A stretch of 64,000 nt of DNA from Deltaproteobacteria bacterium (GTDB taxonomy: Bacteria; Desulfobacterota; GWC2-55-46; JAJCZF01). Shown here in pieces: positions 5,893-48,172 of this stretch (position 1 is the stretch's first letter; each line of letters begins with the position of its first letter). Both the position numbers and the translations under genes were made by a program. The stretch is taken from NCBI GenBank assembly GCA_029262535.1, contig JAJCZF010000074.1:78883-142882 (forward strand). Direction: 5' to 3'. The notes beneath the pieces were generated by a model, which ran no database searches, was not told the origin of the DNA, and saw nothing but the letters and a program-made list of their open reading frames with translations.

Positions 5893-6070
5893 GACAATCC
5901 AAGGAAGCGCTGATCTATTCGTGAACTCGTATCTTGCGTCTAAAATATCCAGCTTCCGCGTTGCGAATCTTCGAAATAGCTAGCTATTCCGTACGATCCA
6001 CGCCTTGAATCTGAACATTTTAGCTCGCAACCTACTTCGGTCAGAATAAATCAGAACTTCCCTAATCTAT
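5893..6070. mobile_element. MITE-like nonautonomous repeat, copy A. About 170 bp with imperfect terminal inverted repeats (GGGAAG[C/T]NCTGAT[C/T]TATTC) and an internal 14-bp palindrome AATAGCTAGCTATT.
   Basis: Its reverse complement aligns at roughly 85% identity over about 165 bp with 48006..48172. Both lie in intergenic space. Confidence 0.6.
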
Positions 6071-6319
6071 TTTTCAATTCTTAAGAAAATTATTCTTTTT
6101 GAAGTATAGTGATTTCATGCCAGTTGGGTTCGGGCGTTGAGACGATATCTCTCACCTTTGTTTCTCGGCATAATCACGGCCTTAATAGCCTATGAGTATG
6201 CCGGTTTTTACCTCTCTTGACTATCCAATAAGGTGTTATTTCGCGGATATGCCTGTTACGGTTTTTTATAAAGTATGTAGGATTAAAGACAGATTGATTC
6301 TCTTTTTTATATGCGGATG

Positions 6320-6351
6320 TCATAACAGGATCGTAACATTGCTGTCATAAT
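6320..6351 (+). promoter_or_regulatory. Candidate Pho-box-like direct repeats (TGTCATA ... TGTCATA) upstream of the small-ORF/porin/pstS module
   Basis: Two exact TGTCATA heptamers at 6320-6326 and 6345-6351, in an AT-rich spacer ahead of a phosphate porin and pstS. The spacing is not the canonical 11 bp. Confidence 0.2.
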
Positions 6352-6407
6352 CTCGTAATGATGATCTCCTATAATGGTTTCAAACAAAGTGAAAATAAAA
6401 GGAGAAA

Positions 6408-6650
6408 GTGATGTCGACGGATCTAAAGAGTTTTGAGAGAGAAGAGAGAGCAAGAAAGAAGTTTCATTTGAATATACCTGCGAAATGCCCTTTCCTGGAA
6501 GAGGAAGAAGGTATTTCCTGCGGAGCCTCTGTGAACGATACTGTCCTTGGCCGGGATGCGCTAGTTGAGCGTTGTTATAGTGAAGAGTTTGATTTCTGCC
6601 CGATATTCTTGGCCGGCGCCCTGAGCGGAGGAACGAAAAGGGCGGCCTGA
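6408..6650 (+). CDS. Small hypothetical protein with four cysteines (80 aa)
   Basis: Good RBS AAAGGAGAAAGTG before the ATG. Cysteines at residues 27, 38, 56 and 64. It is co-oriented and immediately upstream of the porin gene. Confidence 0.35.
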   Translation: MMSTDLKSFEREERARKKFHLNIPAKCPFLEEEEGISCGASVNDTVLGRDALVERCYSEEFDFCPIFLAGALSGGTKRAA

Positions 6651-6711
6651 CCGACTTTAGAGATTTGAATTTATCAAAGAAGCAACCAACTTTAAAAGGA
6701 GAACTAAGGTA

Positions 6712-7911
6712 ATGAAGAGAGGAATAAAGCCATTAATATTAGGCGGGCTGATGCTTGCGGTTACGGCAGTCGTGCCGAGTCTGCCTACCGTGGCGGACGC
6801 GGCGGGAATCACCGTCTATAAGGACGGCGACAAGTATGTGAAGATGGGCGGACGTATCCAGATACAGTATCATTACGAAGACGAGGATACCGGTAGTCCG
6901 ACCGATAGATCGGTGGATGAGCTTTTCTTTAGAAGGCTGCGTCCCTATATAGAAGGGAGCCTTCATAAAGACTGGAAGGGTAAGTTCCAGTTCGATCTCG
7001 GCAAGTCCAGCAATGATAACGAGATAGTGATTAAGAGTGCCTATATGCAGTATACCGGCATAGAAAATGTAAAGGTAACTGTTGGTAACTCCCATACGCC
7101 TTTTTCTCGTGAGACTCTGACCTCTTCCAAGAAGCAGCAGCTGGTAGAGCGTACCTTTGTCGGAGACCATAACTACGGATCGCCGGACAGGAATCTTGGA
7201 ATACACGTAAAGGGAACGACCTCTGATAAGAAGATAGGCTGGGCAGTAAGCGCGGCCTCTGCTTCGATAGACCCTGACGACGATAAGCTTGACTTCGATA
7301 CCCCGGTTAATAAGAGCGACGACTGGAACGAAGGCTGGCTCGCCGGAGCAAGGCTCGACTTTCACCCTCTTGGACATCTTGCGATGGCCCAGGGCGACTT
7401 TAAGAGGGACGAGACCAAGGCGACCATAAGTGTCGCGGCCTTTAGCTGGAATAACGACGATGACAACAATACTCATACCGATGCGACGACAGGCCTTGAC
7501 GACGGCAAGGGCAAGCCGGATGTCGATACCGTAACAGGTTACGAAATAAGCGGCGCGTTACGCACGGCGGGTATTTCAATAGACGCACAGTACAATAGTT
7601 TTGATGTGGACTTGAAAGATAGTTCCGTAACAGCCGGTATGTACAAGGATGGATCTAGCAATCTTACAAGTCTCGCTATAGAGGGCGGTTATATGATTAT
7701 ACCCTCAAAGCTTGAAGTAGTCGCAGGTTATGAAGTGCAGGACGCCGACAACTACAAGACCGAGTGGACGAGAAGCTCCGTAGGCGCCAATTATTTTATC
7801 AAGAAGTATGATATAAAGGTTCAGGCCACCTACAGGATTGGCGAAGGCATAAAGGGCAAGAAGGATAACGACCTGAACGAGTTCTTCGCTCAGGCGCAGT
7901 ACGTATTTTAG
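6712..7911 (+). CDS. Outer-membrane porin, likely phosphate-selective porin O/P family
   Basis: Signal peptide, beta-strand-rich sequence and a C-terminal aromatic (…AQYVF). An RRLRP Arg cluster is present, as in OprO/OprP. It sits directly upstream of pstS. RBS AAAGGAG. Confidence 0.6.
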
Positions 7912-7949
7912 TTAAACCTAAAGAGGGTCGGAAGACCCGGCTAAAGATA

Positions 7950-8984
7950 ATGGAGAAAGAGATGAAAAAGATCAGAAAATATATAACGGCTATTGCCGTA
8001 GCGGCGGCCTTTACCGCGGGCCTGACAGGCTTTGCTACAGACGCAGACGCGGCTAGAAAGATAGTTAAGGTAGACGGCTCTTCGACCGTCTTTCCGATAA
8101 CCGAGGCCGTGGCCGAAGAGTTTCAGATATCGAAGAGGGGTAAGGTTATGGTAACGGTCGGGGTATCGGGCACCGGCGGCGGATTTAAAAAGTTCTGTCG
8201 CGGAGAGACCGACGTTTCCGACGCGTCACGTCCGATAAAGGCCAAGGAGGCCGCGCTCTGCAAGGAGAACGGTATCGACTTTATCGAACTTCCGGTGGCC
8301 TACGACGGGCTTGCCGTTGTGGTAAATCCGAATAACGACTGGGTAAAAGAGCTAACCCCGGCGGACCTTAAGAAGATCTGGGAGCCGGCGGCGCAGGGTA
8401 AGATAACGAAGTGGAGCCAGGTGAAGCAGGGCTGGCCTGATAAGCGTATCAATCTCTTTGGTCCGGGAACCGATTCGGGAACCTTTGATTACTTTACCAA
8501 GGCCATAAACGGCAAAGAGGGCGCGAGCCGCGGCGACTATACGGCGAGCGAAGACGACAACGTGCTGGTTCACGGCATATCGGGCGACCGCTACGCGCTC
8601 GGTTTCTTCGGCATTGCCTACTACGAGAATAACAAGGACAAGTTAAGGCTCATAGGCGTTGACGACGGAGACGACTCGAACGGCAAGGGGGCGATACTGC
8701 CATCTATGGAGACGATCAACAACTCCACCTACCAGCCGCTCTCAAGGCCAATATTTATCTACGTCTCAAAGCAGGGGGCCGAGGCGAAGCCGGAGCTTGA
8801 TGAATTTATAGCGTTCTACCTTGAAAACGCGCCGGCCCTTACCGAAGAGGTCGGTTATATACCGCTTCCCGACAAGATCTATGAGGGAGCCCTGAAGAAG
8901 TTCCGCGCCAGGAAGACCGGCTCGGCCTTTTCCGACGGTTCAAAGACCGGCGTGTCGATAGAGGATCTTGTTAGCGCAAATTAG
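7950..8984 (+). CDS. pstS: Phosphate ABC transporter substrate-binding protein PstS-like
   Basis: Signal peptide. PBP-like motifs [10 protein letters not shown] and [12 protein letters not shown]. No pstCAB genes follow. Confidence 0.75.
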
Positions 8985-9080
8985 AGATAATATAAATCAT
9001 TTTTGTGGGGCTGCCATCCTGACTATGGATACTCATCCTATCCTCCCGGTTTAGAGCAGCTTGTCCCCACTTAGAAAAAG

Positions 9081-9115
9081 GGGGGCGTAACCTTACGCTT
9101 CCCTTTTTCTATTCG
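9081..9115. terminator. Bidirectional rho-independent terminator between pstS (+) and the convergent membrane-protein gene (-)
   Basis: AAAAA GGGGGGCGTAA CC TTACGCTTCCC TTTTTCT. The stem uses two G.T wobble pairs and is flanked by A- and T-runs on both sides. Confidence 0.7.
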
Positions 9116-9139
9116 GATAGTTTGATTTGCCGGAAAATT

Positions 9140-11335: not shown

Positions 11336-11482
11336 GGAGCTGTATTATATAATACACATACGGGCATCTTTCTTCTATCATAACTTTTTCGCCCTTCTTA
11401 TGCCCCTTGTACCGAGCCTATCTTTTCAATCGCGTCATATCTGAAATAATATACCTTTTCGGTATCGACAGGTTTTAGAGGA

Positions 11483-11800
11483 CTATTTAAAAGATACCTT
11501 CGGACCGCGCCGAGGTGGCCGAAGTAATAAAAATATTCGTGATTCCATACCCAGCTTGCTAAAGCCGAAGAACTTCTCCACGCCGAAAATATAGGCGGGG
11601 GTAATGGAAAGACCTATAAGGCCCGCGACGGCAAGCTTAAGCGTTCTTCGGGGGCTGAATGGAGCTAATGAAGTAAAGAAGATTCCGAGCTCAAGCAGCC
11701 CGACTGACCGGAGTAGAGGCAGGAGCGCCATATAACGAATGTAACTACCGGGCTTGATATTCGTTTGATTTTTTGTTCGAAATTTGCCTGCTAAAATCAA
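11483..11800 (-). CDS. Doubtful small membrane ORF. Its 5' part overlaps a copy of the R2 repeat family.
   Basis: The 105-aa ORF has two hydrophobic stretches. Its upstream third coincides with the repeat copy at about 11775-11865. Confidence 0.2.
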   Translation of the reverse strand: MILAGKFRTKNQTNIKPGSYIRYMALLPLLRSVGLLELGIFFTSLAPFSPRRTLKLAVAGLIGLSITPAYIFGVEKFFGFSKLGMESRIFLLLRPPRRGPKVSFK

Positions 11801-11865
11801 AACCTTGGAACAACTCCAACAATACTACTGTTTCAGTGCGATTTTATCATACTAGGGCGGGGTGA
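11775..11865. repeat. R2 repeat family, short copy (CCTGCTAAAATCAAAA ... TGTTTCAG.CGATTTTATCA)
   Basis: Shares core blocks with 38556..38695 and 41476..41620. Confidence 0.45.
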
Positions 11866-12126
11866 GGCACTTTAATTTATTTTACGGTCCATTCTGAGTT
11901 TTCCCTCAAGCAGGCCGACTAAAAGCCGATATATTAAGATGGAGCACGGGGCTAAATGTAACGAGAATAGCATTGCCGAGCCACCCTTTAGTCGCTTGAG
12001 AAAAGAATCTATTTGTCGTAAGATAGCGGATATGGAAGGTTGTTTGTTTCTTATTAATATATCGCGCGAGAAGATCTTTACCCAGTTCTCACAGTTCTCC
12101 CATGTTTCCCGGTTTCCCAAGGCGCT

Positions 12127-27307: not shown

Positions 27308-30300
27308 ATGGATACGAGTGGCAGTAATCTCAAAATAGGACTCAGGGGTAAGACCCTCTTAGGGCTGGGTTTTTTGGTCTTCTGCGCGCTTCTCATCCTT
27401 GGGGGCACCACCTACTGGCACAGTTTTAAGGTCGCCGAAAAGACGGCCGTTGAGTTCGCCGGGGAAGAGATCGAGCAACTGACCGTCGGTGTCGGCTATT
27501 TGCTCAAAAGCTCCAGGGCCGACCTGAAGGTAATAAAGAGCACGCCGCCCATACAGGGCATCATTCGGGCCATGGATGACGACGGCTTCGACGTCGTAGG
27601 GGAGAGCACCATCGACGAGTGGCGCGGAAGGCTCGCCACCATCTTCGACTCCTTTATGAGAAACAATCCCGGCTACAGCCAGTTACGCTACCTGGATAAG
27701 GACGGTAACGAGATCGTTCGCGTCGAACTCCTCGGCATGGCCGCGCGTATCGTTCCTAGAGAAGAGCTCCAGAACAAGGCCGACTACCCCTATTTTACAG
27801 AGGCCATAAAGTTAGAATCCGGAGAGTTCTATTCTTCCGATGTGACCCTCAACCGTGAGCGGGGGCCTATTGAGACCCCCCATACTCCAATGCTCAGGCT
27901 CTCGACCCCCATTTACGATGAGGTTGACGTCGTAAGCGGAGTTCTCGTCTTGAATATCCTTGCCGACCCGATCTTCGACACCATCATCCCAAAGACCGGG
28001 ATAGAGACCTACATCATAGACGATAAAGGTTACTTCCTTCGCCATCCCGACAGCGCAAAGGAGTTCGGTGGAGAGCTTGGCCACGGGTTTTCGGTCTCCG
28101 ACATAGATTACGAGCTTGACGACGACGGTTCTTTCGACCGGCATGACAAGTTTGTGTACCACCAACCTCACGAGAACCATATCGAGGGCTTTAAGAAGGT
28201 CTTTTTCGACCCGTCCGACAGGACCCGTTATTGGAATCTTCTCTATAAGATTCCAAACGAGATGGTCTTCGCCAGCCTCTATGCGACCAGAAACTCGATG
28301 CTCGCAACCGGAATACCCTTAGGAATCCTGTCGATCATCCTGATTACATTGTTGGTCTCAAGAAGGGTCGTTCGTCCGGTTGTCAGCCTCTCAGAGGCCG
28401 CGCGGAAGATGCGCGCGGGAGATCTCTCCATCAGGGTTCCCGAAGAGGAGGTGACAGACGAGTTCCGCCACCTCTACCGTGCCGTTAACGAGTTCGCCGA
28501 GGCGCAGCAGTGTGCGGTCGAGCGCTTCGAGCGCGCGCTAACCGTAAGGACCGAGGAGCTTCAGAGGAGCAACATAGAGTTGCTCGGTTCTCAATCGAAA
28601 CTTGCCGCAAGGAGCGGGGAGCTTGAGAATCTCAACAGGGCGCTCATTTCTTCCCAGTCCGAACTCGATGCGAGGAACAACGAACTCAAAACGAAGGCCG
28701 AGTACGAGGGCACCATGACGAGGCTGATAGCCCTCTTTAACTCCTCCTTCAACGAGGAGTATGAACTCAAAGAGATGTTCTCCATCCTCGGCGAGCGGTT
28801 GCCCTTACCTTGCGCGGCTTTCTACCGCTACGACGAATGGTCCGGAAAAGCCGTATGCGTAGCCTCCAAAGGGAATCCCGAGTGCTTTGTCAGGGCCTTT
28901 TCTGAGGACGAGAGCCACGTAAACAGGGTCTGCGTCGACCTGAGGCCCGTGGTGCTTGAGGGTGACGAGATCGATTTCACCTGTGAGGCCGAGGGGTGTG
29001 AGGCCGGAGGCGCCGCGATAAAGCCCCTGGCGGTCTTTATCCATCCTGTGACTTATCGCGAGAAAGTATTAGGAGCGCTCGTAATAGCCTCGACCGCGCA
29101 GATGGACGATCTCAAAAAGGATTTTATCGAAAAACTCTCGATACATCTCGGCATAGAGCTTAATAATCTAAAACAGTATGCCGATCTCAAGGAACTCTCG
29201 GCGCAGCTAAAGCAGAAAGGCAAGGAGATAGGGCAGAAGAATATCCAGCTCGAAGAGTCGAACAAGATGAAGAGCGAGTTTCTGGCCAACATGTCCCATG
29301 AGCTGAGAACACCTCTTAACGCCATAATCGGATTCTCGGAGATATTGAAGGACGGGCTGATGGGAGAGATGGCCGACAAGCAGAAGGACTACTGTAACGA
29401 TATCTTCACGAGCGGACAGCACCTCCTATCCCTTATTAACGACATACTGGACCTCTCGAAGATAGAGGCCGGCAAGATGACCCTCGACCTTGAGGGCGTC
29501 TCTGTACCCGGACTGCTCAAAAACAGCCTGATGATCGTAAAAGAGAAGGCCATGTCTCATTCCATAGGGCTTGAGTTGGACCTGGATGAGAGGCTCGGCA
29601 TCGCCTCCGTTGACCCGCGTAAACTAAAGCAAGTCGTATATAACCTCCTCTCCAACGCAGTCAAGTTTACCCATGACCACGGAACGGTCTCGCTCGCGGC
29701 CAGTTTAGTTGAGAAAGACTCGGGCAGGATGATGGAGATAAGCGTAACGGATACAGGCATAGGGATATCCGAAAAGAACCAGAAGAGACTATTTAAACCC
29801 TTTGAGCAGCTTGAGGGAGCCATTACCAAGAAATATAAGGGCACCGGCCTCGGCCTCATGCTGGTAAAGCGTCTCACCGAGCTTCACGGCGGCACGGTGG
29901 AGGTCAGGAGCAAAAAAGGCGAGGGCTCCTCCTTTACCGTAAGGATCCCGTACATGGCGGATGAGGGAGCCACAGCCGAAGAGTCGCTATTCCTGCCGGA
30001 GAAGCCTCTCCAAGAGATGTCTAGTGAAAAAGGGCCGCTCGTCCTTATAGTAGAGGACGACGCAAAGGCTGCCGACATTACCAAGGCCCAGCTCGAAGAG
30101 AGGGGCTACAGGACCATGACGTCCGAAACGGCCGAGGATGGGCTTAAGGCTGCCGCGCTGATGCGGCCTGACCTCATAGTGCTCGACATCCTTCTTCCGT
30201 CCATGAGCGGATGGGACTTTTTGCAGATGATCAAGGATGACGATGCGACCTGTAATATACCGGTGGTAATACACTCCATAGTTGCGGATTCGAGGAAGGG

Positions 30301-32449: not shown

Positions 32450-35400
32450 ATGAACGATAATGAAAAGACAAAGGAAGAGCTTATAAAAGAGCTGGCGGAG
32501 CTTCGCGCGAAGCCCTCAGAGGGCGTAGCCGCGGAGAGCGACCGGGACGAGTATAAGGCCTATTTCGATTATATGGGTGACGCCCTGATCGTCCTGGATA
32601 TGCACAGAAGGGTGCTGAGGCTTAATAAGTCCGCCAAGAGGATGCTTGGTTACTCGGACGAGGATATTTCCGGTCTGACTTTTGAGAAGCTCTTTCCGGA
32701 ACGTGAGCATAAGAGCCATTATGCCGAGATGGAGCAGGCTATTGAAACAAGGTCTATCAGGTCTATGGATACTACGCTCATCTCAAAGCGCGGGGTGGAG
32801 ATACCGGTGCTTCTGAGCGGTTCCGTAATGCTTGACCGGGAAGGCGAGCCGTGCGGTTTAATCGGCGTATGCAGGGATTACACACAGATCAAACGGCGCT
32901 ATGAAGATGAGTTATTGAGATCGGAACAGCGCTGCCAGCTCCACATAGAGAGGACCCCTCTCGCAGCCATAGAGTGGAACACCGACTTCGAGGTTGTGGA
33001 GTGGAACCAGGCCGCCGAGAAGGTTTTTGGCTATACAAGGGAAGAAGCCCTTGGCCGACATGCCGACTTTATCATCCACAAAGATGCCAGAGGCCATGTG
33101 GATAAGGTATGGCAAGATCTTATGGAAAGAGAGGGCGGCGAGAGAAGCACAAACCTGAACGTCACAAAGGACGGTAGGACCATATTTTGCGAGTGGTATA
33201 ATACACCGCTGGTCACAGGGGGCGGCGAGGTGATAGGAGCCGCATCTATGGCCCACGATGTAACGGAGCTTAAGGCGGCCCAAGATGCTCTTAGAAGTGC
33301 CCATTACGATCTTGAAGAGAAGGTCCGGGAGCGCACCGAAGAGCTGATAAAGACCAATGAGGCGCTCAGAGACAGAGAAAGAAGGCTCTTAGAGGCCGAA
33401 CGAGTCTCGGGGTTGGGTCATTGGGAGTACGACCTTCGAGACGGCAAACTCTACTGGTCCGATGAGGTCTACCGTATCTTCAACATGGACCCTGAAGAGA
33501 TAGAGTCCTCTTTTGATGCTTTTATGGAGAGGATTCACCCCGAAGACCGGGAAGAGGTCGCCAGGGCCTACCGGGAGTCGGTAGAGAACAAAACCGTCTA
33601 CGATATCGTCCACCGCCTCCTGATGGAAGACGGAAGCGTTAAGTATGTAAATGAGAGGTGCAAGACCGAGTATGACGAGGACGGGATTCCCGTGCGTTCC
33701 CTCGGTACGGTACTTGACATAACGAAACTCAAACAAGCGGAAGAAGCTCTCGGGGAGAGCGAGGGGAAATACCGCCGTTTGTTCGAGAACATGCAGGAGG
33801 GTTTTGCCTACTGCAAGATGGAGTTCGATGAACTCGGCAAGCCGGTTGATTGGGTCTACCTTGAGGTAAACGACTACTTTGAGCTTCTTACCGGACTCAA
33901 AAAGGAGGATGTGGTCGGCAAAAGGGTCACTCAGGCGATACCGACAATCAAGGAAACACACCCGGAACTCTTCGACATCTACGGCGACGTTGCTCTGACC
34001 GGCAGGCAGGCCAGGTTTGAAATCTATTTCAAACCCCTGGAGATATGGCTTTCCGTCGCGGCATACTGTCCGCGTAAAGGGTATTTTATTGCAATATTCG
34101 GCAACATCACGGAGCGTAAAGGGATTGAAGAGGCTCTGAGGGACAGCGAAGAGAGGTTCTCCAAGGTCTTCTATGCCTCGTCCGACATCATGGCGATAAC
34201 CAGGGTGAGCGACGGCCTGATCGTTGAGGTGAACGATACAATGTTGAAGCTGTTTGGCTACGAGCGCGACGAGCTCGTCGGCGATACCACGACCGGAAAG
34301 AATCTCTGGGGAGACCCCTCCGACCGCGATAGGATGGTCGAGATATTAAAGAGAGACGGTTGTATTAAGAACTTCGCTACGAAGGTTTGCACCCGTAGCG
34401 GTGAGTTACGCTCGATTATCTTCTCGGCCGACACCATTACTCTTCGTGGAGAGACGCACCTGATAACGCATGCAAGGGACATTACCGAAAAGCTTGAGGC
34501 GGAAGAACGTCTCAGGCAAAGCGAGGAGAAGTTCAGGGGAATCGCCGAGAGGAGTTACGACGCCATCCTGATGACCGACGCCGGGGGCCATTATACCTAT
34601 ATCTCTCCGGGAGATGAGAAGAACACCGGAGTAAAGGCCGAAGAGGGGATTGGCAAAGACTTCCGGGACTTTCTGCCGGAGAGATCGGTTCCGCTTGCCG
34701 ACAAGGCTTTCGCCAGGGTCCTTGGCGGCGAGACCGTAGAAGGGCTCGAACTTGAGGCCGTGCGCAGGGACGGCAGGCCCTTCTTTATCGAATGCAATAT
34801 CACTCCGGTCTATCAGGATAATGAAGTGTCCGGAACGCAGATAATATACAGGAATATCACGGAACGTAAGCGGGCCGATGAGGTTCGAATAAAGAATATC
34901 GAGTTGGAAAAAGTCAACAGGTTGAAGGACGAGTTTTTGGCGAATATGTCACACGAACTCAGGACCCCCCTTAATTCGATAATCGGCTTCTCGGAGATGC
35001 TCAAGGACGATATGGTCGGCAAGCTAACGGAAGTGCAGAAAGGACAGTGCGAGCTTATATTTAAGAGCGGACGACACCTCTTGGATCTAGTAAATGACAT
35101 ACTCGATCTTTCGAAGGTGGAGGCCGGAAAGATGCAGCTTGAGCTTGAGATGTCCAATATTTCTGAACTGCTCAAGACCGGCGGGCTTATCCTAAAGGAG
35201 ACGGCCCAGAAGCGCTCCATAGAGCTTTCACTGGACATTGCGGACGATATAGGTATCGTCTATGTGGACCCGGTAAGATTCAAGCAGGTAGCCTACAATC
35301 TCCTCTCTAACGCCGTAAAGTTCACCCCGGACGGCGGAAGTGTTTCGCTCTCGGCAAGGTCTATCGGCGCGGATCCGAACAGGATGCTGGAGGTAAGCGT

Positions 35401-35623
35401 TACCGATACCGGCATCGGTATACCGGAAAAGGATATTGAGAGACTCTTTACGCCCTTTGAACAGCTGGAGAATGTCTTTACCAAGAAATACGAGGGTACC
35501 GGTCTCGGACTCATGTTGGTAAAACGTCTCACGGAGCTTCACGGCGGTACTGTGGAGGTGAAGAGCAAAGAAGGCGAGGGGAGCACATTTACCGTAAGGA
35601 TTCCATACAGGGAGTCACTTTAA
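32450..35623 (+). CDS. Multi-PAS (about 5 PAS/PAC) sensor histidine kinase
   Basis: 1057 aa. Repeated PAS/PAC blocks are separated by coiled-coil linkers. H-box SHELRTPLNSIIGFSE. The ATPase core is nearly identical to that of the 27308 kinase. Confidence 0.85.
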   Translation: MNDNEKTKEELIKELAELRAKPSEGVAAESDRDEYKAYFDYMGDALIVLDMHRRVLRLNKSAKRMLGYSDEDISGLTFEKLFPEREHKSHYAEMEQAIETRSIRSMDTTLISKRGVEIPVLLSGSVMLDREGEPCGLIGVCRDYTQIKRRYEDELLRSEQRCQLHIERTPLAAIEWNTDFEVVEWNQAAEKVFGYTREEALGRHADFIIHKDARGHVDKVWQDLMEREGGERSTNLNVTKDGRTIFCEWYNTPLVTGGGEVIGAASMAHDVTELKAAQDALRSAHYDLEEKVRERTEELIKTNEALRDRERRLLEAERVSGLGHWEYDLRDGKLYWSDEVYRIFNMDPEEIESSFDAFMERIHPEDREEVARAYRESVENKTVYDIVHRLLMEDGSVKYVNERCKTEYDEDGIPVRSLGTVLDITKLKQAEEALGESEGKYRRLFENMQEGFAYCKMEFDELGKPVDWVYLEVNDYFELLTGLKKEDVVGKRVTQAIPTIKETHPELFDIYGDVALTGRQARFEIYFKPLEIWLSVAAYCPRKGYFIAIFGNITERKGIEEALRDSEERFSKVFYASSDIMAITRVSDGLIVEVNDTMLKLFGYERDELVGDTTTGKNLWGDPSDRDRMVEILKRDGCIKNFATKVCTRSGELRSIIFSADTITLRGETHLITHARDITEKLEAEERLRQSEEKFRGIAERSYDAILMTDAGGHYTYISPGDEKNTGVKAEEGIGKDFRDFLPERSVPLADKAFARVLGGETVEGLELEAVRRDGRPFFIECNITPVYQDNEVSGTQIIYRNITERKRADEVRIKNIELEKVNRLKDEFLANMSHELRTPLNSIIGFSEMLKDDMVGKLTEVQKGQCELIFKSGRHLLDLVNDILDLSKVEAGKMQLELEMSNISELLKTGGLILKETAQKRSIELSLDIADDIGIVYVDPVRFKQVAYNLLSNAVKFTPDGGSVSLSARSIGADPNRMLEVSVTDTGIGIPEKDIERLFTPFEQLENVFTKKYEGTGLGLMLVKRLTELHGGTVEVKSKEGEGSTFTVRIPYRESL

Positions 35624-38399: not shown

Positions 38400-38546
38400 A
38401 TTGACTCGGACCGATTTTATCATAATTAGCACAATTTGGCCGACTCGGAAGAGACGGCCAAAGACGCCACAGCGTAAGCAGTTGTTTTAGAAGAGGAAAA
38501 GTGGTGGGCGGTACTGGGTTCGAACCAGTGACTTCCACCGTGTGAA
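38400..38546. repeat. About 145-bp direct repeat, copy 1. It carries the R2 tail, a roughly 60-bp tRNA-Val 3'-flank and a 45-nt copy of the tRNA-Val 3' half (38502-38546, minus orientation).
   Basis: Identical or near-identical to 41583..41715. The tRNA part is an exact 45-nt match to the 3' half of the intact tRNA-Val. Confidence 0.65.
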
Positions 38547-38555: not shown

Positions 38556-38695
38556 ACGTATTTTTGCAAGGTCATGATTTTATTCTGGTTTCCCCTTTTA
38601 ACCTATAAAATCAAAGCCTTAGGCCGATTCCAATAATTCCATAGAGTCCAGTTAATTCCATAGTTTCGGACTGATTTTATCACAGTTGGGTGCAA
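38556..38695. repeat. R2 repeat family, full copy
   Basis: Shares the blocks TTTTTGCAAGGTCATGATTTTATTCTGG, AAAATCAAA and GACTGATTTTATCACA with 41476..41620. Confidence 0.5.
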
Positions 38696-38797: not shown

Positions 38798-40237
38798 ATG
38801 TTAAAGAAAATTATTTTAATAGCTTTTTTGCTTGTCCCCTTTGCAGCCCCCTTTGCCATTGCAGGCGGTGCGGATTGGTCATTCGTGGCGGATGAAATAG
38901 AGACCGCCTTGCATTCGGCCGGGGAAGCGTATGGCGAAGGGAATGTAATAGAGGCGCAGGACACCGTGTCACGGGCATACCTCGAACTCTTCGAGGGCGG
39001 GGGGTTGGAAGCCGCCATAAGCCTTCACATATCCGAGAGGCGTAAACTGGATATCGAAGAGATGTTCGGGACGGTCAGAGACGCCATGGACCCTGGAGGA
39101 CCCGTCTCCGGGGTCATGGAGAAAGTTGACCTGCTGGTCTCAACTCTCAAGGAAGTAGCCCGGAGCCTACCGGTAAATGGCGGACCAAAAGAGTCTGCGC
39201 TTTCGCTCTTTTTCAAGTCGTTCATAATAATCCTGAGGGAGGGCTTCGAGGCCATACTCGTTATAAGCGCCCTTTCGGCATGGCTTGTAAAATCCGGACA
39301 TACTGATAAGGTCAGGACCATTTATAAAGGTGCGGGAGCGGCCCTCGTAGCAAGCGTCATTACCGCTATTTTGCTACAGACGCTGATTAAGATAAGCGGC
39401 GCGGGCAGGGAGGCCCTTGAAGGCGTTACCATGCTCCTTGCCACCGCGGTCCTCTTTTACGTTAGCTACTGGCTCATAAGCAAGATAGAGATAGGGCGGT
39501 GGCAGAATTATATAAGGTCGAAGGTCGAGGGTTCGCTCACGAGAGCCAACCTCTTCGCCCTCGGGTTTGCGGCCTTCCTCGCCGTCTATCGAGAAGGGGC
39601 GGAGACGATACTATTTTACGGGGCCCTCTATTCCTCGTCCGGGGGAGAGAGTTCCATAATTGCCTCGGGATTCATTATTGGGGTTCTTGCCCTTGTCGGA
39701 GTTTTTATCATCATCCAATATACGAGCGTGCGCATTCCCATAGGTCCGTTCTTTGCTGTAACGTCAACCCTCCTTTATTACCTTGCCTTCAGTTTTGCGG
39801 GAAAAGGAACACACGAACTACAGGAGGCCGGATGGATATCCTCTACCGTTGCCGAAGGGCTCCCGACGATTCGCTTCCTGGGTATCTATCCGACCTGGGA
39901 GGGCGTATGGGTACAGTCGCTCCTCTTCCTGGCTCTTCTGTTTGCTGTCCTTTACTGTCTTGTTATAAGACCTTACAGGGAAAGAGGAACTCTCTCTAAC
40001 GGCCTGACCCATATGGAGCTCGACATCAGATCCCTCCACAATATGCTTAATTCCGTAAGCGAGCACGCCATGAAGGCCCACGGACTCTCAAGCGGGCGTG
40101 CAGACCGAGAGGCGGACGAGATAAGAAGGCACCTTGTACGCATAGACTCAAAGGTACATTTGGTGATGGAGCATTTAATGAAGCTCAAAGAAGGTATATT
40201 TACAGATACGGAAAGGGATATAAAGAAGGCGCCTTAG
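38798..40237 (+). CDS. FTR1/EfeU-family high-affinity iron permease with N-terminal periplasmic extension
   Basis: Two REGxE motifs (ILREGFEAIL and VYREGAETIL) in TM helices. Signal peptide plus a roughly 130-aa N-terminal soluble domain. RBS GGAGG. Confidence 0.75.
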   Translation: MLKKIILIAFLLVPFAAPFAIAGGADWSFVADEIETALHSAGEAYGEGNVIEAQDTVSRAYLELFEGGGLEAAISLHISERRKLDIEEMFGTVRDAMDPGGPVSGVMEKVDLLVSTLKEVARSLPVNGGPKESALSLFFKSFIIILREGFEAILVISALSAWLVKSGHTDKVRTIYKGAGAALVASVITAILLQTLIKISGAGREALEGVTMLLATAVLFYVSYWLISKIEIGRWQNYIRSKVEGSLTRANLFALGFAAFLAVYREGAETILFYGALYSSSGGESSIIASGFIIGVLALVGVFIIIQYTSVRIPIGPFFAVTSTLLYYLAFSFAGKGTHELQEAGWISSTVAEGLPTIRFLGIYPTWEGVWVQSLLFLALLFAVLYCLVIRPYRERGTLSNGLTHMELDIRSLHNMLNSVSEHAMKAHGLSSGRADREADEIRRHLVRIDSKVHLVMEHLMKLKEGIFTDTERDIKKAP

Positions 40238-40335: not shown

Positions 40336-41193
40336 ATGTACAAAAAAAGCAGGTATCTGGCAGTCGTATTGTTGTTGGGAGCGTTCGCAGTCCTTCCGTC
40401 TTTTGTCTACGGCGCTAACGGCGCTAACTTCGTCCTTTACAACCATCACACCGCCGAGCCGGGGGAGATGGAGATCATGCTGATGATGGATATTGGCCAG
40501 GAGCCGGACGGCACCAATTATACTGCCCAGATGGTCGAATTCGAGTTGGGGATAACGGAGAGGTTTACGGCTGAGTTCATGGTCGAGGGGCAGACGACCT
40601 CCGGTGAAGACGGGTATCATTTCACGGGTTTCAGGTTGGAAGGCCGGTACCGTCTCTTTGAATACGGGACATTCTTAAACCCCGTACTTTACGTAGAGTA
40701 CGAAGATTTGAGTGAGGACACCAAGTACGTGATGGAGATGAGCGGCAGGGAGGATGCGTCGGAAAAGCATAAATCCAGGCCATCGAGGGAACGGGTGCTT
40801 GAGACAAGGCTCATCCTCGGCCACGATATTACCGATAGGTTCGATGTGGCTCTGAACTGGCTAAACGAGAGCGATCTGGACACGGGGGTAACTGCCTTTG
40901 GGTACGCGGTGGGCCTTAATTACGGCCTCCGGGCTTTTGGCGGCGGTTCTTCCGGTCATATGGAGGACAAAAGCGAGGTCCATAAAAGCGTAACGCTCGG
41001 CCTTGAAATCTTCGGCGGCCTGGGTGATAGCGACAAGGGTTTGACCGCAAATGGAAACCTCACCCAGCACTACTTCGCTCCAAACCTTAAAATACACGCC
41101 ACGGAAAAGGTCATGGTAAAGTTCGGCGGGGCGATAGGGCTTACCAACGTCAGCCAGGATATATTCAGGCTCGCCCTGGGCTATGAGTTTTAA
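40336..41193 (+). CDS. Outer-membrane beta-barrel protein of unknown function
   Basis: Signal peptide, alternating amphipathic beta-strands and a C-terminal ...LALGYEF ending in Phe. RBS AAAGGAG. Confidence 0.6.
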   Translation: MYKKSRYLAVVLLLGAFAVLPSFVYGANGANFVLYNHHTAEPGEMEIMLMMDIGQEPDGTNYTAQMVEFELGITERFTAEFMVEGQTTSGEDGYHFTGFRLEGRYRLFEYGTFLNPVLYVEYEDLSEDTKYVMEMSGREDASEKHKSRPSRERVLETRLILGHDITDRFDVALNWLNESDLDTGVTAFGYAVGLNYGLRAFGGGSSGHMEDKSEVHKSVTLGLEIFGGLGDSDKGLTANGNLTQHYFAPNLKIHATEKVMVKFGGAIGLTNVSQDIFRLALGYEF

Positions 41194-41475: not shown

Positions 41476-41669
41476 AATTTTCGTAAGGGCATGATCTTGT
41501 TCTGGCTTCCCTGTTTACCTGCTAAAATCAAAATCTTAGATGAGTTCGAACAATTCTATAGAGTCTAATCCAGTCCATTGTTTCAGGCTGATTTTATTAC
41601 AATTTGGCCAATTGAAAACGATAGGTCAAAGACGCCACCGCGTAAGTTGTTGTTTTAGAAGAAAAAAAC
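41476..41669. repeat. R2 repeat plus tail, copy 2. It lies immediately 3' of the tRNA-Val gene and is part of the approximately 145-bp direct repeat.
   Basis: Aligns block-for-block with 38556..38695 (R2) and with 38400..38501 (tail). Confidence 0.55.
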
Positions 41670-41744
41670 TGGTGGGCGGTACTGGGTTCGAACCAGTGAC
41701 TTCCACCGTGTGAAGGTGGCACTCTACCGCTGAGTCAACCGCCC
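41670..41744 (-). tRNA. tRNA-Val (anticodon CAC)
   Basis: The reverse complement GGGCGGTTGACTCAGCGGTAGAGTGCCACCTTCACACGGTGGAAGTCACTGGTTCGAACCCAGTACCGCCCACCA folds into a cloverleaf. Acceptor 7 bp, D-arm, anticodon stem CCACC/GGTGG with loop TTCACAC, T-arm ACTGG-TTCGAAC-CCAGT, and an encoded CCA. Confidence 0.85.
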
Positions 41745-41857
41745 GTGCTTTATAAGAATAATATATAGCCCTCTGGTAAGTCAAGCCTTGCCCGCTCTTT
41801 GGCGACTCGTTAAGAATTATATTGAATCCGTGCCGCTTAATAGATATATTCTACCCT

Positions 41858-42295: not shown

Positions 42296-42301
42296 GCTAA
42301 T

Positions 42302-43309: not shown

Positions 43310-43572
43310 GATCAAAGGCTCTCTTTTTATCTAATACAAATTTCTGAATTTTATGCAAAAATTTGTATTGCATGTTGCGGCTGGGGCTTCAGAATTCTTA
43401 TAACTATTTAATATATAAGAGCTTTCTTTTTACGGGTCTTTATTTTTATTTGGCATGTTCTTTGCAATTTACTATCATTAATTAATTTGAGCCATCGCAG
43501 CTTTTTTCAGTCTCTAATCTTCCTCTAAGCGACAAGAGGCTATGGTTGATGTAATAAGGAGAGATTTTAACT

Positions 43573-44304
43573 TTGAAAATTCTTTTTAATGATATGAAGA
43601 TGGCCATTGGCCGCGACGGGCGTTTTATGCTTCGCCTCTTTGGGATTGACAGCCCGGAGAGGATTGAGGTCGAGCAGTTCGCTCATCGCGTATATAAGAA
43701 ACATTACGGAGCGGATCTGCGCTCTTTTAGCCGCGAGATGCTGGCCCTTACTTCGGACAGTGGGCGTGTTCTTAGCTGTGTGGGTATTAATATGCCCGAA
43801 AACGGCCCGCTCTTTTTGGAACACTATACTGGCGGTCCGGTTCAGGAGGCCATAGCCGCGGCCAGGCCGGAAGTTGAAGATGTCAAACGGGCCGAAGTTG
43901 TAGAGGTCGGTACCATGGCCGTACATCCGAAGGGGCTTTGCCGTTTGATGATGGCGGCGCTAGCCGGAGTGGTTGCCGCGCGCGGTAAGAGATATATCGT
44001 CTTTACGGCTGTTAAGAACCTCCAGAATACACTAGATAGTCTCAAGATACCCTTTACAGTACTTGCCGATGCAGATATGTCTGCACTGCCAAGGGTTGAT
44101 GAAGGTGGGACCGACTGGGGCCGTTATTATAATTCTTCGCCAAAGGTTATCGTGCTCGATCTCTTACAGGGCTGGTCCCGTGTGGGAGAGATACTGGATA
44201 ACGCCAATGGCGATAGCGCGCCGGATATGGCGCGGATCATGTCGGACCTATTTGCCGAAGGCGAATACCTTGAATCTCCACATAAGGGAGGCAGGGTAGC
44301 CTAG
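43573..44304 (+). CDS. Thermostable-hemolysin-like (PF12261-type) protein with GNAT/acyltransferase-like fold
   Basis: Recalled family blocks REMLAL, PLFLEHYTGGPVQEAI, EVVEVGTMAV, YIVFTAVKNL and WGRYYNSSPKV. About 240 aa. TTG start with RBS AAGGAGAG. Confidence 0.5.
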   Translation: MKILFNDMKMAIGRDGRFMLRLFGIDSPERIEVEQFAHRVYKKHYGADLRSFSREMLALTSDSGRVLSCVGINMPENGPLFLEHYTGGPVQEAIAAARPEVEDVKRAEVVEVGTMAVHPKGLCRLMMAALAGVVAARGKRYIVFTAVKNLQNTLDSLKIPFTVLADADMSALPRVDEGGTDWGRYYNSSPKVIVLDLLQGWSRVGEILDNANGDSAPDMARIMSDLFAEGEYLESPHKGGRVA

Positions 44305-44306
44305 AG

Positions 44307-45869
44307 ATGAAGTTTTGGCGGAGCATCCTCCACCATGCAAAAGAGTCCCCGACACGGCTTGCGCTCGGTCCCGTCACCTATGACGGGCTCAGGTCAGCCG
44401 TAACCCGTGTAGTTCGCTCTCTACCCGATATGTCGGGAAAGAGGGTCGGCCTCTTTCTCGGCAACGGCCCACTCTTTGGAGTATACGATATCGCCCTTAC
44501 CCTCAAGGGCGCGGTAGTAGTGCCCCTTCCTGGCTTTTTTTCCACTGAACAGTTAGAGCATCTTATTGTTGATGCGGCCCTCGATACGGTAGTGATCGAG
44601 AGTGGTTGCGATGAGGGATTTCATTCGCTACTGGCTTCTCTCGATGTGATTGAAGCCGATACCGGACATCTTGTTTCCTCCAGTGAGGAAGAAGACGGAG
44701 GTGACGGGGGTGACGGGCAAGAGCTGGTTTTATCCGAGCTATCTCCTTCCACAGTTGTTAAGATAATATATACCTCCGGCACGACCGGCAGTCCGCGGGG
44801 CGTTATGGTCACTCTTGCAGCACTTGAGGCCGTGACCGAGTCGCTCATCGAGCGTAGCGAGGCGACCGGGAGCGATAGCCATCTGTCGCTCTTGCCGCTT
44901 TCGACCCTGCTTGAGATAATCGGCGGTATCTACGTGCCGCTAACCGTTGGGGCAACGGTTACCTACCTGCCCGCTGGTGGTATGGGTGGGGTTACCGCAG
45001 ATCCTTCGGCCCTTATAAAGGCAATTGAGTTTATCAGGCCTACGACCACGATAGTCGTTCCTTCGCTGCTGGAGCTGCTCGTGCGTTTCTTTGAAGAGGC
45101 CGGGGTCAGGCCCGAAGGCTTTCGTTTTATCGCGTGCGGCGGAGCGCCGGTAGCCGTTTCACTGCTTCTTCGGGCAGAGGCTCTGGGACTTCCGGTCTTT
45201 CAGGGTTACGGCCTTTCCGAGTGCGCCTCTGTCGTCACATTAAACGAGTTGCTATCAAACCGTATAGGCTCTGTTGGCAAGCCCCTTTCGCATGCCGGAG
45301 TAACCGTAAGCGAAGAGGGTGAGATCGTTGTGACCGGCCCGGCGGTTCTTGCCGGTTACGCGTCGGGAGGTAAAGAGTTCTCGTTAGAGTACCCGACCGG
45401 TGATATAGGCCGTTTGGACGAGGACGGTTATCTATATATCGAAGGGCGTAAGGATAATGTGATCGCGCTGGCCAACGGCAGGAATCTCTCGCCGGAATGG
45501 GTAGAGGGTCTAGTATCGTCCCTTAAATTCGTAAAACAGGTCGTCGTCTTCGGCACAGGCATGGAGGGCGCGGTCGCTCTTTTGGTAGTTGACCATGAAT
45601 GGCTAAGGTCGACTGCTGAGAGGTTTTCTGATAAATCTCCCGTGGAAGAGCTTGTTGATAACCCACTTATAATAAAGACGGTATTGGATGAGATAATAGC
45701 AGCTTGTAAGGACCTTCCGGACTATGCGCATATTCAAAGGGTGAAAGTTTTGGCAAAACCTTTTACGATAGAGAACGGTCTTCTAACCCACAACTGGAGG
45801 CCGCGTCGCAAGGAAATTTTCAAGCGTTACGAAAAGGATATAGAGAGACTATACGAAGAAGATCTGTAA
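44307..45869 (+). CDS. AMP-dependent synthetase/ligase (ANL superfamily adenylating enzyme)
   Basis: A3 core IIYTSGTTGSPRGVMVT, A5 GYGLSEC-like and A8 IGRLDEDGYLYIEGRKDN. Starts 3 bp after the upstream stop. Confidence 0.85.
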   Translation: MKFWRSILHHAKESPTRLALGPVTYDGLRSAVTRVVRSLPDMSGKRVGLFLGNGPLFGVYDIALTLKGAVVVPLPGFFSTEQLEHLIVDAALDTVVIESGCDEGFHSLLASLDVIEADTGHLVSSSEEEDGGDGGDGQELVLSELSPSTVVKIIYTSGTTGSPRGVMVTLAALEAVTESLIERSEATGSDSHLSLLPLSTLLEIIGGIYVPLTVGATVTYLPAGGMGGVTADPSALIKAIEFIRPTTTIVVPSLLELLVRFFEEAGVRPEGFRFIACGGAPVAVSLLLRAEALGLPVFQGYGLSECASVVTLNELLSNRIGSVGKPLSHAGVTVSEEGEIVVTGPAVLAGYASGGKEFSLEYPTGDIGRLDEDGYLYIEGRKDNVIALANGRNLSPEWVEGLVSSLKFVKQVVVFGTGMEGAVALLVVDHEWLRSTAERFSDKSPVEELVDNPLIIKTVLDEIIAACKDLPDYAHIQRVKVLAKPFTIENGLLTHNWRPRRKEIFKRYEKDIERLYEEDL

Positions 45870-46100
45870 GGATTAAGAACGCGGAGAGGGAACTTTCAAG
45901 TAACGAAGCTTATTCCGCGAAAATAAAACCACACCTGTGTGGATATAGAGAGATTATACGAAGAAGATCTGTAAGGCTTTAAAACGCGGAGAGGGAATTC
46001 AAGTAGCTAAGAACTTGCACCGCGAAAATTGGCCCCGTATACTGTGCGGCTGTGCGGAGCTAAAATAAGAGCACACTGGTATGCCACACCTGTGTGGAAG
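45835..46100. repeat. Tandem direct duplication (about 105 bp and about 160 bp units) beginning inside the last 35 bp of the ANL ligase gene
   Basis: GATATAGAGAGA(C/T)TATACGAAGAAGATCTGTAAGG ... AACGCGGAGAGGGAA ... CCACACCTGTGTGG occurs twice in tandem. The second unit carries an insertion of about 50 bp. Confidence 0.7.
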
Positions 46101-46111
46101 GAGAATAAGGT

Positions 46112-46930
46112 ATGAGGGGATTTTTACTGTACAGGATCTTTGGTATAACGCTTGCGTTAGTTGTAGTTGCGCTCTTTTCCACGGCCTCACTGGCAGTCGA
46201 GACTTCGCAAAGCCATGTGGCGAAGGGCGATATGTACTATGCAAAGCGCGCCGACGGACACAGGGACGATATGGCGGCGGTAAATATTATAATGTCGGCC
46301 ATTGACGAGTATAAGTTAGCATACGAGATGGGCGACCACTCGTCGGAACTTGTTGAAAAGACTATGCGCGCTAACTTCTTTTACGCCACATATGCCGAGA
46401 CCGATAAAGATAAGCAGAAAGCGGCCTTTGAGCACTCTATAAAGATAGCCGAGGAGTTTTTAAAGGACGACCCGGATAATGTCGCTATTAATTATCAGAT
46501 ATCCGGGGCCTGGGGGCGTTGGGGAGAGGTCAACGGCATAATAGCCTCGGCCCGCAAGGGTGTTGCCGACAGGGTTAAGGAGTATGGCGAGAAGACGGTC
46601 GCGTTCGATGCCGACTTTGGCGATGGCGGCGGATACAGAACGCTCGGCAGGCTTCATCTTATGGTGCCGAGAATTCCTTTCATCCTCTCATGGCCGAGCA
46701 ATAAGGAGAGTGAAAAATATCTGGCCAAGGCCGTGAAGGTCGGGCCGGACAACCTGACCAACCACCTTTTTTATGCCGAGACACTTTATGAGAACGGTTC
46801 CTATGTAAAGGCCATGGAAGAGGTCAATATCGTGCTCAGGAACGGCGCAAGGTCCGATTATCTCGTTGAAGATTTGAGGGACCAGAGCGACGCGCGCAAG
46901 CTCAAAGAGAAGATAAATAAGAAGTTATAG
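46112..46930 (+). CDS. Secreted/periplasmic TPR-like repeat protein
   Basis: Signal peptide. Helical repeat pattern with Y/A/G spacing. No enzymatic motif. Confidence 0.55.
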   Translation: MRGFLLYRIFGITLALVVVALFSTASLAVETSQSHVAKGDMYYAKRADGHRDDMAAVNIIMSAIDEYKLAYEMGDHSSELVEKTMRANFFYATYAETDKDKQKAAFEHSIKIAEEFLKDDPDNVAINYQISGAWGRWGEVNGIIASARKGVADRVKEYGEKTVAFDADFGDGGGYRTLGRLHLMVPRIPFILSWPSNKESEKYLAKAVKVGPDNLTNHLFYAETLYENGSYVKAMEEVNIVLRNGARSDYLVEDLRDQSDARKLKEKINKKL

Positions 46931-46942
46931 GAACTCTTAAAA

Positions 46943-48028
46943 TTGACCAGTAAAGAAGATTTCGACATTCAGGCCATAAAGGACTATGTGCCGGACGCGT
47001 TATGGGATTCCTTTAAGCTGAACCCAGAGCGTTTAGGAGAGCTGCGGGTCCTTGAGGCGAGTATCTATCTCACGCGCGACTGCAACTTGAAGTGCCAGTA
47101 CTGCAAGATCATAAAGACCGAACTGGAAGAAGAGCTCTCTATCGAAAGGTGGATAGAGGCGGTCGATATCCTGGAGTCGCTCGGTATCAGGTTCGTTAAT
47201 ATCGCGGGTGGAGAGCCTACGGTCGTTAAGGGGCTTTCCAGGTTGATAAGCCACCTCGACAAAAATACCACGATGGATTTTTCCGTTGTATCCAATTCGC
47301 TCTTTGGTGATAATATGGCCCGCGAGCTTGCCGAGGCAGGCCTCCGGGCTTATGTGGCGAGCGTGGATGTGCTCGGCGACGACGTTGCTTTGGACGATCT
47401 GAGGAAGTCGAGCGCCGGAATAAAGATGCTCGCAAAACTAAAAGAGCTAGGCGTACCCTACCTCTGCGCTAATATTGTCGTATCGGCCCAAAATATCGAT
47501 AAGGTAATGGATGTGGTAAGGTATCTTAGCGACGAGGGCGTCTGGGTGAATATCTGCCCGATCCTATGGGGCAAGGGCGATAAGTGGGACAAGATCGAGG
47601 CGGCCGACCGGACCTACAGGCTTGGGCCTGAGCACAAGGCGCGCCTTACCGCCTTAAGCAAAGAGATAATAGAGTATAAACGGACCGGCGCGCTCATACT
47701 GCCGACCGAACAGTATATCGAGGCCATGCCGGATTACGGTATTTCGCTTTCATGGAAATGTTTCGACGAAGAAAAGCCCGGCCCGCCGCCGCGCCTTACT
47801 ATAGACGCCGACGGCGCGATGATGACATGTATAAATATGCGCGGCGATCTTTCTGTCAAACACTCTATATTCGATCTAAAAGATAAAGATCTATTTGAAG
47901 AATTTATTTCGGACTGGTGGCGGGACGCAAGCAGCTGTACCGGTTGTTATTGGTCCACTATGGTTATGGCTCAGGAGCGTCAGGAGACGCTCGAACGGCT
48001 TAAGACGGGAAGCTCTGATTTATTCTAG
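46943..48028 (+). CDS. Radical SAM enzyme with C-terminal Cys-rich (SPASM/twitch-like) region
   Basis: CNLKCQYC near the N-terminus, GGEPT and C-terminal CINMRGD...SSCTGCYWS. The final 7 codons and stop codon lie inside MITE copy B. Confidence 0.7.
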   Translation: MTSKEDFDIQAIKDYVPDALWDSFKLNPERLGELRVLEASIYLTRDCNLKCQYCKIIKTELEEELSIERWIEAVDILESLGIRFVNIAGGEPTVVKGLSRLISHLDKNTTMDFSVVSNSLFGDNMARELAEAGLRAYVASVDVLGDDVALDDLRKSSAGIKMLAKLKELGVPYLCANIVVSAQNIDKVMDVVRYLSDEGVWVNICPILWGKGDKWDKIEAADRTYRLGPEHKARLTALSKEIIEYKRTGALILPTEQYIEAMPDYGISLSWKCFDEEKPGPPPRLTIDADGAMMTCINMRGDLSVKHSIFDLKDKDLFEEFISDWWRDASSCTGCYWSTMVMAQERQETLERLKTGSSDLF

Positions 48029-48172
48029 GCGAAGTAGATTGTGATCGAAAATGTTCAGATTCAAGGCGTGAATCGCAAGTAATAGCAAGCTATTGCTAAG
48101 ATTCGCAACGCGGAAGCTAGGCATTTTAGGCGCAAGATACGAGTCTACGAATAGATCAGAGCTTCCCTAAGA
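48006..48172. mobile_element. MITE-like repeat, copy B (inverted relative to copy A at 5893..6070)
   Basis: Both TIRs are present (GGGAAGCTCTGATTTATTC ... GAATAGATCAGAGCTTCCCT). The internal palindrome is TAGCAAGCTATTGCTA. Confidence 0.6.

Follow-up and report, generated by a model that had tools for sequence, protein, structure and literature searches.

The Inverted Pair and Its Surroundings

The window analyzed here is the 64-kb stretch of contig JAJCZF010000074.1 from a deltaproteobacterial assembly. It contains two inverted copies of a noncoding element of 159-161 nt, copy A downstream of the GTPase gene typA/bipA and copy B at the junction of a radical-SAM gene and a short-chain dehydrogenase (SDR) gene (table 1). 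Both are very probably members of a previously undescribed family of miniature transposable elements with inverted repeats (MITEs), whose ends are of the type found in the IS5 family of insertion sequences (ISs) and whose structured core is unrelated to those ISs.

In a repeat search of the window, 5903-6062 and 48007-48166 formed the sole long inverted pair (160 nt, 86% complementary), with a separation of 41.9 kb. The two copies are identical at 138 of 160 positions, the longest uninterrupted matches measuring 23 and 21 nt, and in the pairwise alignment the similarity is gone beyond these limits. An earlier reading of the same DNA, made from the sequence only, had estimated the identity well (about 85%) and had drawn the limits (5893-6070 and 48006-48172) too generously, by about 10 nt on each side.

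Each copy forms an imperfect palindrome over nearly its full length and has terminal inverted repeats (TIRs) of 18 nt. The imperfect TIRs of the sequence-only reading are thus present on both copies, whereas the palindrome that it described as internal is real but spans the whole element, which forms one imperfect hairpin. The TIR pattern GGAAGYKCTGATYTATTC has exactly four matches in the window, which are the four element ends, against 0.33 expected, and none of 100 shuffles reached four. The TIRs are conserved, with covarying changes, in all other copies of the element. No open reading frame (ORF) of at least 40 aa lies within either window copy, and neither nhmmer nor a covariance model found a third copy in the window.

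Copy A does lie between genes, 86 nt past the typA stop and beyond the typA terminator. Copy B had also been taken as intergenic, but it covers the last 22 nt of the radical-SAM ORF and stops 22 nt before the SDR start. A Logan contig from the window's own sample (L021, SRR15505517; loci are cited by L numbers) terminates inside copy A.

Copies in Other Genomes

Genomes were scanned with a 23-mer from the element core and metagenomes with a gapped core pattern (14+18 nt); taxon labels of metagenome-assembled genomes (MAGs) are those of the record titles. The 23-mer revealed full-length copies in MAGs labelled Woeseiaceae and Wenzhouxiangellaceae, and the gapped pattern matched ten metagenome contigs. 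Full-length copies are located in L001 and L005-L015, with 76-88% identity to copy A, and amount to about 11 independent insertion sites of this long family, in gammaproteobacterial MAGs and sediment metagenomes besides the window. Further copies and conserved TIRs, on which the proposal of a MITE had depended, hence both exist outside the window.

Several copies are placed within operons. For instance, the L001 copy lies between the atpB stop and atpE, the L005 copy between aprB-like and aprA-like ORFs (identified from their N-terminal sequences), and L012 and L009 are the two halves of a single hisH-hisA insertion. Four contigs of one metagenome terminate inside the element, as repeats do this to short-read assembly. 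A different palindromic element (L009 10030-10152; -66 kcal/mol, 30 bits against the MITE model) has the MITE copy upstream of hisA as its neighbor, at a distance of about 40 nt.

In L006, a t44 RNA stands beside ORFs read as map, glnD, and dapE, which is a gammaproteobacterial arrangement. The closest named relatives of the window's TypA are from Nitrospirota (72-74%), and the best relatives of its radical-SAM protein are from MAGs of "Deltaproteobacteria," Thermodesulfobacteriota, and Nitrospirae; judged by these proteins, the window host resembles Nitrospirota and is not a gammaproteobacterium. Therefore, the family spans at least two phyla.

The element had no match among plasmids (blastn), and its core 18-mer was absent from viral contigs. 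Nothing relevant to it was found in Rfam at gathering score (window and nine loci), nor in Rfam 15 at E up to 10 (the element and an array of the shorter repeats described below), and a literature search by sequence strings and accession numbers did not find it.

A Candidate IS5-Family Partner with the Same Ends

A degenerate TIR pattern gave three matches in viral contigs. Two of them (L022 and L023) fall inside coding sequence and were set aside as chance. The meaningful one, L024, reads TTAA|GGAACCTCTGATTAATTC; about 50 nt further on, an ORF begins with MEQNQQFSFADAEYANKG, after which the contig breaks off. When the full length of this IS was sought in the viral contigs with a unique 25-mer of its 5' region, L024 itself was the only match. 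The IS left end (L024 12450-12575) had no blastn match among phages, a search in which the MITE itself was not included.

Among plasmids (blastn), the L024 end matches an annotated IS5-family transposase on pUP202 of Methylomonas sp. UP202 (L025, table 1). The ends of this IS are GGAACCTCTGATTAATTCCCC (left) and GGGAATCTCTGAAAAACAGCC (right), with TAA flanking both sides, and its transposase carries the Pfam domains DUF772 and DDE_Tnp_1. The transposase ORF (L025 2578-3577) has a stop and a frameshift after codon 138 despite its annotation as a single coding sequence; homologues are uninterrupted over 332 aa, and such 332-aa homologues are abundant.

Eleven more full IS copies (L026-L029 and L034-L040) have the left end GGAACCTCTGATTAATTCCC or its variant GGAACCTCTGATCAAT, and the right end GGAACCTCTGAAAAAC. 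The MITE TIR GGAACCTCTGATTAATTC is identical in 18 of 18 positions to the IS left end (L024, L025, L026-L029, L034-L040), and the variant GGAACCTCTGATCAAT is the MITE's other TIR. The existence of an autonomous IS with identical TIRs supports the nonautonomous MITE of the sequence-only reading. The sharing is confined to the ends of about 18 nt: unlike the IS, the MITE has no transposase, has repeats of the left-end type at both ends, and has a dissimilar interior. In a covariance-model search, the MITE core was found in none of the IS copies.

The flanks point in the same direction. ISs are bordered by TAAA/TAAA, TATA/TATA, TTAA/TTAA, and repeatedly TTAA/CTAA, with perfect duplications in L026, L028, and L029. 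The MITE shares with them, though not cleanly at the two window copies, the 3-4 bp T(T/A)A duplication, the frequent TTAA...CTAA pattern included. In detail, its duplications are perfect in L013 (CTTA/CTTA), L012+L009 (TTTA/TTTA), and L001 (TAA/TAA), and have one mismatch at copy A (CAA, 5900-5902; TAA, 6063-6065), L005, L008, and L006. Neither a clean 9-bp nor a clean 4-bp duplication fits every copy; most are consistent with a 3-bp T(T/A)A duplication next to which one base varies.

The first base of the IS right flank is T or C regardless of the left flank (L026-L029, L036, and L025), and TTAA...CTAA recurs in three independent insertions. The IS flank pattern would correspond either to a 3-bp duplication with a variable extra base or to a varying cut position.

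Copy B in the Radical-SAM/SDR Junction

The gene string T_hemolysin, AMP-binding, RMD1-3, radical SAM, SDR is common to the window and to the orthologous loci L017 and L020, the radical-SAM proteins of which are 67-68% identical to that of the window. Neither of these loci has the element: the radical-SAM gene runs straight into the SDR gene, with a GTGA overlap in L017 and a distance of 4 nt in L020, and in these relatives the SDR gene is translationally coupled to the radical-SAM gene. With the two genes overlapping or abutting at these empty sites, the comparison shows that copy B inserted into the 3' end of the window's radical-SAM gene.

The window protein ends in ...RLKT-GSSDLF*, whereas its orthologues end in LKNKPGWLEP* and LKQKVG*. 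The sequence-only reading had correctly proposed a 3'-end insertion with the stop supplied by the TIR; the TIR contributes six codons (GSSDLF) and not seven. Downstream of copy B, the sequence GATGGGAGATCATAAGTGA still closes in a GTGA overlap with the SDR start, and comparison with the L017 junction (GAGCCGTGAAATTAAAAGG) suggests that 48168-48192 is a remnant of the junction as it was before the insertion. Logan contig L016 (SRR15505517) terminates inside copy B.

A 57-nt direct repeat (45836-45892 and 45941-45997, 93% identity, 105 nt spacing) is located immediately upstream of the RMD1-3-like gene, which starts at 46112.

A Hairpin That Belongs to One Strand

Both strands of nine copies were folded as RNA. 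The strand that folds well is the reverse complement of the copy-A reading, that is, the minus strand for copy A and the plus strand for copy B. Its folds reach -67.8 to -91.5 kcal/mol, against -33.7 to -71.8 for the other strand, and it is better by 20-38 kcal/mol in all nine copies. It also carries 6-13 G·U pairs per copy, whereas the other strand has 0-3.

For copy A, the minus strand folds at -72.0 kcal/mol (z -7.9) and the plus strand at -46.2 (z -4.3); for copy B, the plus strand reaches -76.1 (z -8.9) and the minus strand -51.5 (z -4.5). The consensus fold has 67 pairs at -75.6 kcal/mol on the well-folding strand and 51 pairs at -27.9 on the other. Covariance-model scores are 154-191 bits against 19-71 bits, respectively; within the window, copy A scores 175 bits on the minus strand and 51 on the plus strand, and copy B 178 bits on the plus strand and 53 on the minus strand.

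The alignment of the well-folding strand places 94.4% of cells in standard pairs, and 17 pairs are altered on both sides. This level of pairing and compensation was reached by none of 500 shuffles, and slid controls gave 35-45%. G·U occurs in 84 cells of 23 columns and A·C in 6 cells of 4 columns (binomial p = 3e-4), two of the four A·C columns being a misaligned outer stem. Many columns pass through AU-GU-GC among the copies. The internal loops GAA/GA, tandem GA/GA, and AAG/A are invariant.

Two simpler sources of the asymmetry were considered. A mutational strand bias is opposed by the C-rich mRNA-sense strand (C 43, G 29), which runs against the positive GC skew of the window and also against what deamination would produce on the coding strand or on the lagging template. 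Selection that merely weakens the hairpin in mRNA fails to explain the 17 compensatory double changes and the scarcity of transversion mismatches. A promoter reading of the conserved TTGAAT motif was likewise rejected, as inspection of the short family revealed no conserved -10 at the right spacing.

Orientation Relative to Host Genes

The element often lies 0-13 nt after a stop codon within an operon. The weak-folding strand is the sense strand of the neighboring genes in about 10 of 11 independent long-family insertions and in all four sites of a shorter repeat family (see below), which makes about 14 of 15 in total. By hand calculation, the two-sided binomial probability is ~0.012 for 10/11 and ~0.001 for 14/15. 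The exception is copy B, where the strong hairpin lies in the transcript sense of the radical-SAM and SDR genes.

Insertions that put a hairpin of about -75 kcal/mol beside an operon stop codon may have been selected against. Ribosomes stall at stable hairpins of repetitive extragenic palindromes (REPs) if these lie no more than about 15 nt from a stop codon, and RNase III acts on Correia hairpins. For the enterobacterial ERIC repeats, orientation-dependent effects are documented (Delihas 2008, PMC2229807).

Comparison with Known Repeat Families

The closest parallels in architecture are Correia/NEMIS of Neisseria and ERIC/IRU of enterobacteria. Like the present element, they are noncoding, 100-200 bp long, have TIRs, fold into a hairpin of nearly full length, insert between the genes of operons, and make short TA-containing duplications (Delihas 2008, PMC2229807). 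No sequence relationship with either was found, and the ends of the present element match IS5-family ISs, whereas the partners of Correia and ERIC are unknown or other. Neither the 23:4 G·U/A·C asymmetry nor the preference for the weaker fold in mRNA is described in that review, and a 2024 survey of MITEs (PMC11602168) has nothing on IS5, orientation, or strand.

The same 23-mer scan turned up short hairpin repeats of about 120 nt in the Thermodesulfobacteriota MAG PL23b_bin.63 (table 1), one locus being a tandem array of three. They share with the MITE only its inner core motifs, together with the same strand asymmetry (-64/-37, -70/-54, and -68/-45 kcal/mol) and a position a few nt after stop codons, antisense to genes. 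On the other hand, IS5-type ends are lacking in them, the hairpin at their apex is not that of the MITE, and the sequence of their outer stems varies between copies. These short repeats are also undescribed in Rfam and in the literature searched.

REP sequences and their paired form, REPIN, which are associated with RAYT enzymes, resemble the element in being palindromic, extragenic, close to stop codons, and able to form a long hairpin when paired. However, a REP unit has 20-40 nt with a terminal GTAG or CGTC tag and has neither TIR nor target-site duplication. An identity with REP/REPIN was rejected on these grounds, given that the element is one 160-nt hairpin bounded by IS5 TIRs and accompanied by duplications, and that its sole GTAG sits about 30 nt from the end, in an internal loop. 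The IS200/IS605-derived PATE elements have no TIRs, no duplication, and a fixed target of four or five nucleotides at the left end; they were rejected too, as the element has TIRs and variable flanks.

Other Repeats of the Window

Table 1. Coordinates of the element copies, the adjoining genes, and the related sequences
Feature	Location	Strand	Remarks
MITE copy A	5903-6062	- (well-folding)	Element proper 5903-6061, plus one extra C at 6062
TIRs of copy A	5903-5920 and 6044-6061	+ and -	
MITE copy B	48007-48167	+ (well-folding)	Inverted relative to copy A; same sense as flanking genes
TIRs of copy B	48008-48025 and 48149-48166	+ and -	
typA/bipA GTPase gene	4003-5817	+	Upstream of copy A
typA intrinsic terminator	about 5842-5872		Hairpin and T-run between typA and copy A
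Radical-SAM gene	46943-48028	+	Final six codons (GSSDLF) and TAG stop (48008-48028) read from copy B TIR
Putative remnant of the pre-insertion junction	48168-48192	+	TAAGATGATGGGAGATCATAAGTGA; apparent old in-frame tail and GTGA stop/start overlap with SDR
SDR (short-chain dehydrogenase) gene	48189-48995	+	Directly downstream of copy B; GTG start at 48189
IS5-family IS copy	Methylomonas sp. UP202 pUP202, NZ_CP123898.1 52817-54022 (L025)		~1.2 kb
Short hairpin repeats (~120 nt)	Thermodesulfobacteriota MAG PL23b_bin.63: L002 4298-4419; L003 5715-6073 and 6932-7056; L004 4924-5048		

Three further repeats of the window are separate from the element. The 3' part of a tRNA-Val(cac) gene (41670-41744, minus strand) with adjoining sequence (41594-41744) recurs at 38426-38546, 3.2 kb apart and with 84% identity. 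Between the two copies are a gene for an iron permease of the FTR1 type (38798-40237) and an outer-membrane-like ORF of 285 aa (40336-41193). This segment has the appearance of an islet that entered at the tRNA gene, although the repeats enclose no recognizable integrase.

A 45-nt motif (TTTGCCTGCTAAAATCAAAACCTTGGAAC...) is present three times with 69-80% identity (11783-11827, 38597-38641, and 41514-41558), and two of these copies adjoin those of the tRNA-Val repeat. Finally, a direct repeat of 233 nt (29725-29957 and 35380-35612, 80% identity) inside a cluster of signalling genes probably reflects two paralogous sensor genes.

Origin and Spread of the Element

The explanation preferred here, with a probability of roughly 85%, is that of a MITE family in which IS5-type ends enclose an unrelated structured core. 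Under this scheme, an IS5-family DDE transposase supplied in trans would bind the ends of 18-19 nt, and the element would be cut and pasted into sites that contain T(T/A)A, with a duplication of 3-4 bp. Stop codons and the very short intergenic spacers of operons would be among such targets. Copy B landed six codons before the radical-SAM stop, replacing the C-terminal tail and splitting a coupled gene pair.

The G/U-rich strand seems to be under selection to maintain a single long, irregular hairpin, the internal loops of which are rich in purines and invariant. It would fold most likely as RNA, the best guess for the level at which the constraint acts, and less likely as single-stranded DNA. 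In operons, the survivors would be almost only those copies that are oriented so that the host mRNA carries the weaker hairpin with its A·C mismatches.

Several points weigh against this explanation. No IS5-type transposase is encoded within the 64-kb window (tblastn), in agreement with the absence of a transposase already observed by the sequence-only reading. A clean duplication is absent at both window copies, copy A having CAA/TAA and copy B an imperfect 6-nt direct repeat (TAAGAC/TAAGAT, one mismatch) rather than one of 3-4 bp. The MITE is not a simple internal-deletion derivative, because the IS does not have the MITE interior. Cut-and-paste by a DDE enzyme predicts no strand asymmetry. 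As for the well-folding strand, its expression as RNA is only presumed: it mostly runs antisense to the genes of the host, and a conserved promoter is lacking, as each insertion has flanks of its own. In addition, the scans were core-anchored, so that those 23 and 14+18 nt were bound to be invariant among the copies, and the sample is about 11 long-family insertions only.

As a bolder extension, the core might be an undescribed module of structured RNA or single-stranded DNA that serves some function itself. Its fold would be conserved in at least two phyla, and it occurs free of transposon ends in the Thermodesulfobacteriota genome; two IS5 left ends would have come to enclose it, and the DDE transposase would now spread it horizontally. 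This extension is offered tentatively, and the chances are against it.

A different view, judged improbable, is that the element is primarily a structured noncoding RNA or a cis-regulatory RNA family, with secondary IS5-like ends and no role of the transposase in its spread. Strand-specific covariation, transitions mediated by G·U, invariant internal loops, and fold z-scores of -7.9 and -8.9 would all be expected of such a family, and the inner core AAAAUGUUCAGAUUCAAGGCGUG ... CAACGCAGAAG.UGG...UUUU is common to the family of ~120-nt repeats that has no IS5 ends. However, ends identical in 18 of 18 positions to an IS left end, with matching flank duplications, are difficult to regard as secondary, and the element is absent from orthologous sites. 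Copies placed antisense, 0-13 nt from the stops inside the atp, his, and apr operons, have no room for a promoter of their own, and no Rfam family matches.

Still less probable is a mobilization as single-stranded DNA by an HUH/Y1 enzyme, of the REPIN/RAYT or IS200/IS605 type, in which the asymmetry would reflect the active strand and the direction of replication. One strand does form the better hairpin with DNA parameters as well (copy B, -31.8 kcal/mol on the well-folding strand vs. -25.5 on the other), the orientation relative to genes is biased (about 14/15), and the structured strand carries an invariant GTAG. Nevertheless, such families are without TIRs and target duplication, and the element has both, of the IS5 type; its flanking tetranucleotide is variable and not a fixed target; and GTAG sits in an internal loop about 30 nt inside instead of at the 5' end of a palindrome of 20-40 nt. 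The transposon IS608 prefers the lagging-strand template. The better-folding strand of the element is antisense to genes, contrary to such a preference for co-oriented genes, and the window copies are on opposite strands of one replichore.

Last and least credible are the readings of the pair as the product of a local segmental duplication or as sites of recombination by which the 6-48 kb segment is inverted, as the sequence-only reading had envisaged for the intervening 42 kb. Two inverted copies 41.9 kb apart would suit either, but many copies occur in unrelated genomes, each of the sixteen 4-kb bins has a positive GC skew with both junctions included, and the order from radical SAM to SDR across copy B is the ancestral one of element-free relatives. 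Moreover, the copies are only 86% identical and match exactly over 23 nt at most, which is about the minimum for RecA to recombine them efficiently.

Implications

As a MITE, the element is ordinary genome furniture, and it accounts for the altered C-terminus of the radical-SAM protein, the split of a coupled gene pair, and the breaks in the assemblies. Only its 18-nt ends are IS-derived, which shows how a foreign structured module can be mobilized. The identity of 83-87% between the element of the window host and the copies of Gammaproteobacteria marks a recent horizontal spread. If the core has a function of its own, this would be a case of a functional RNA hitchhiking on a MITE, with a hairpin that is not a mere by-product of inverted repeats. 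The G·U versus A·C asymmetry, together with the nearly exclusive orientation in operons, provides a testable system for selection at the RNA level on the hairpins of bacterial MITEs, and the same system bears on how hosts filter insertions by orientation.

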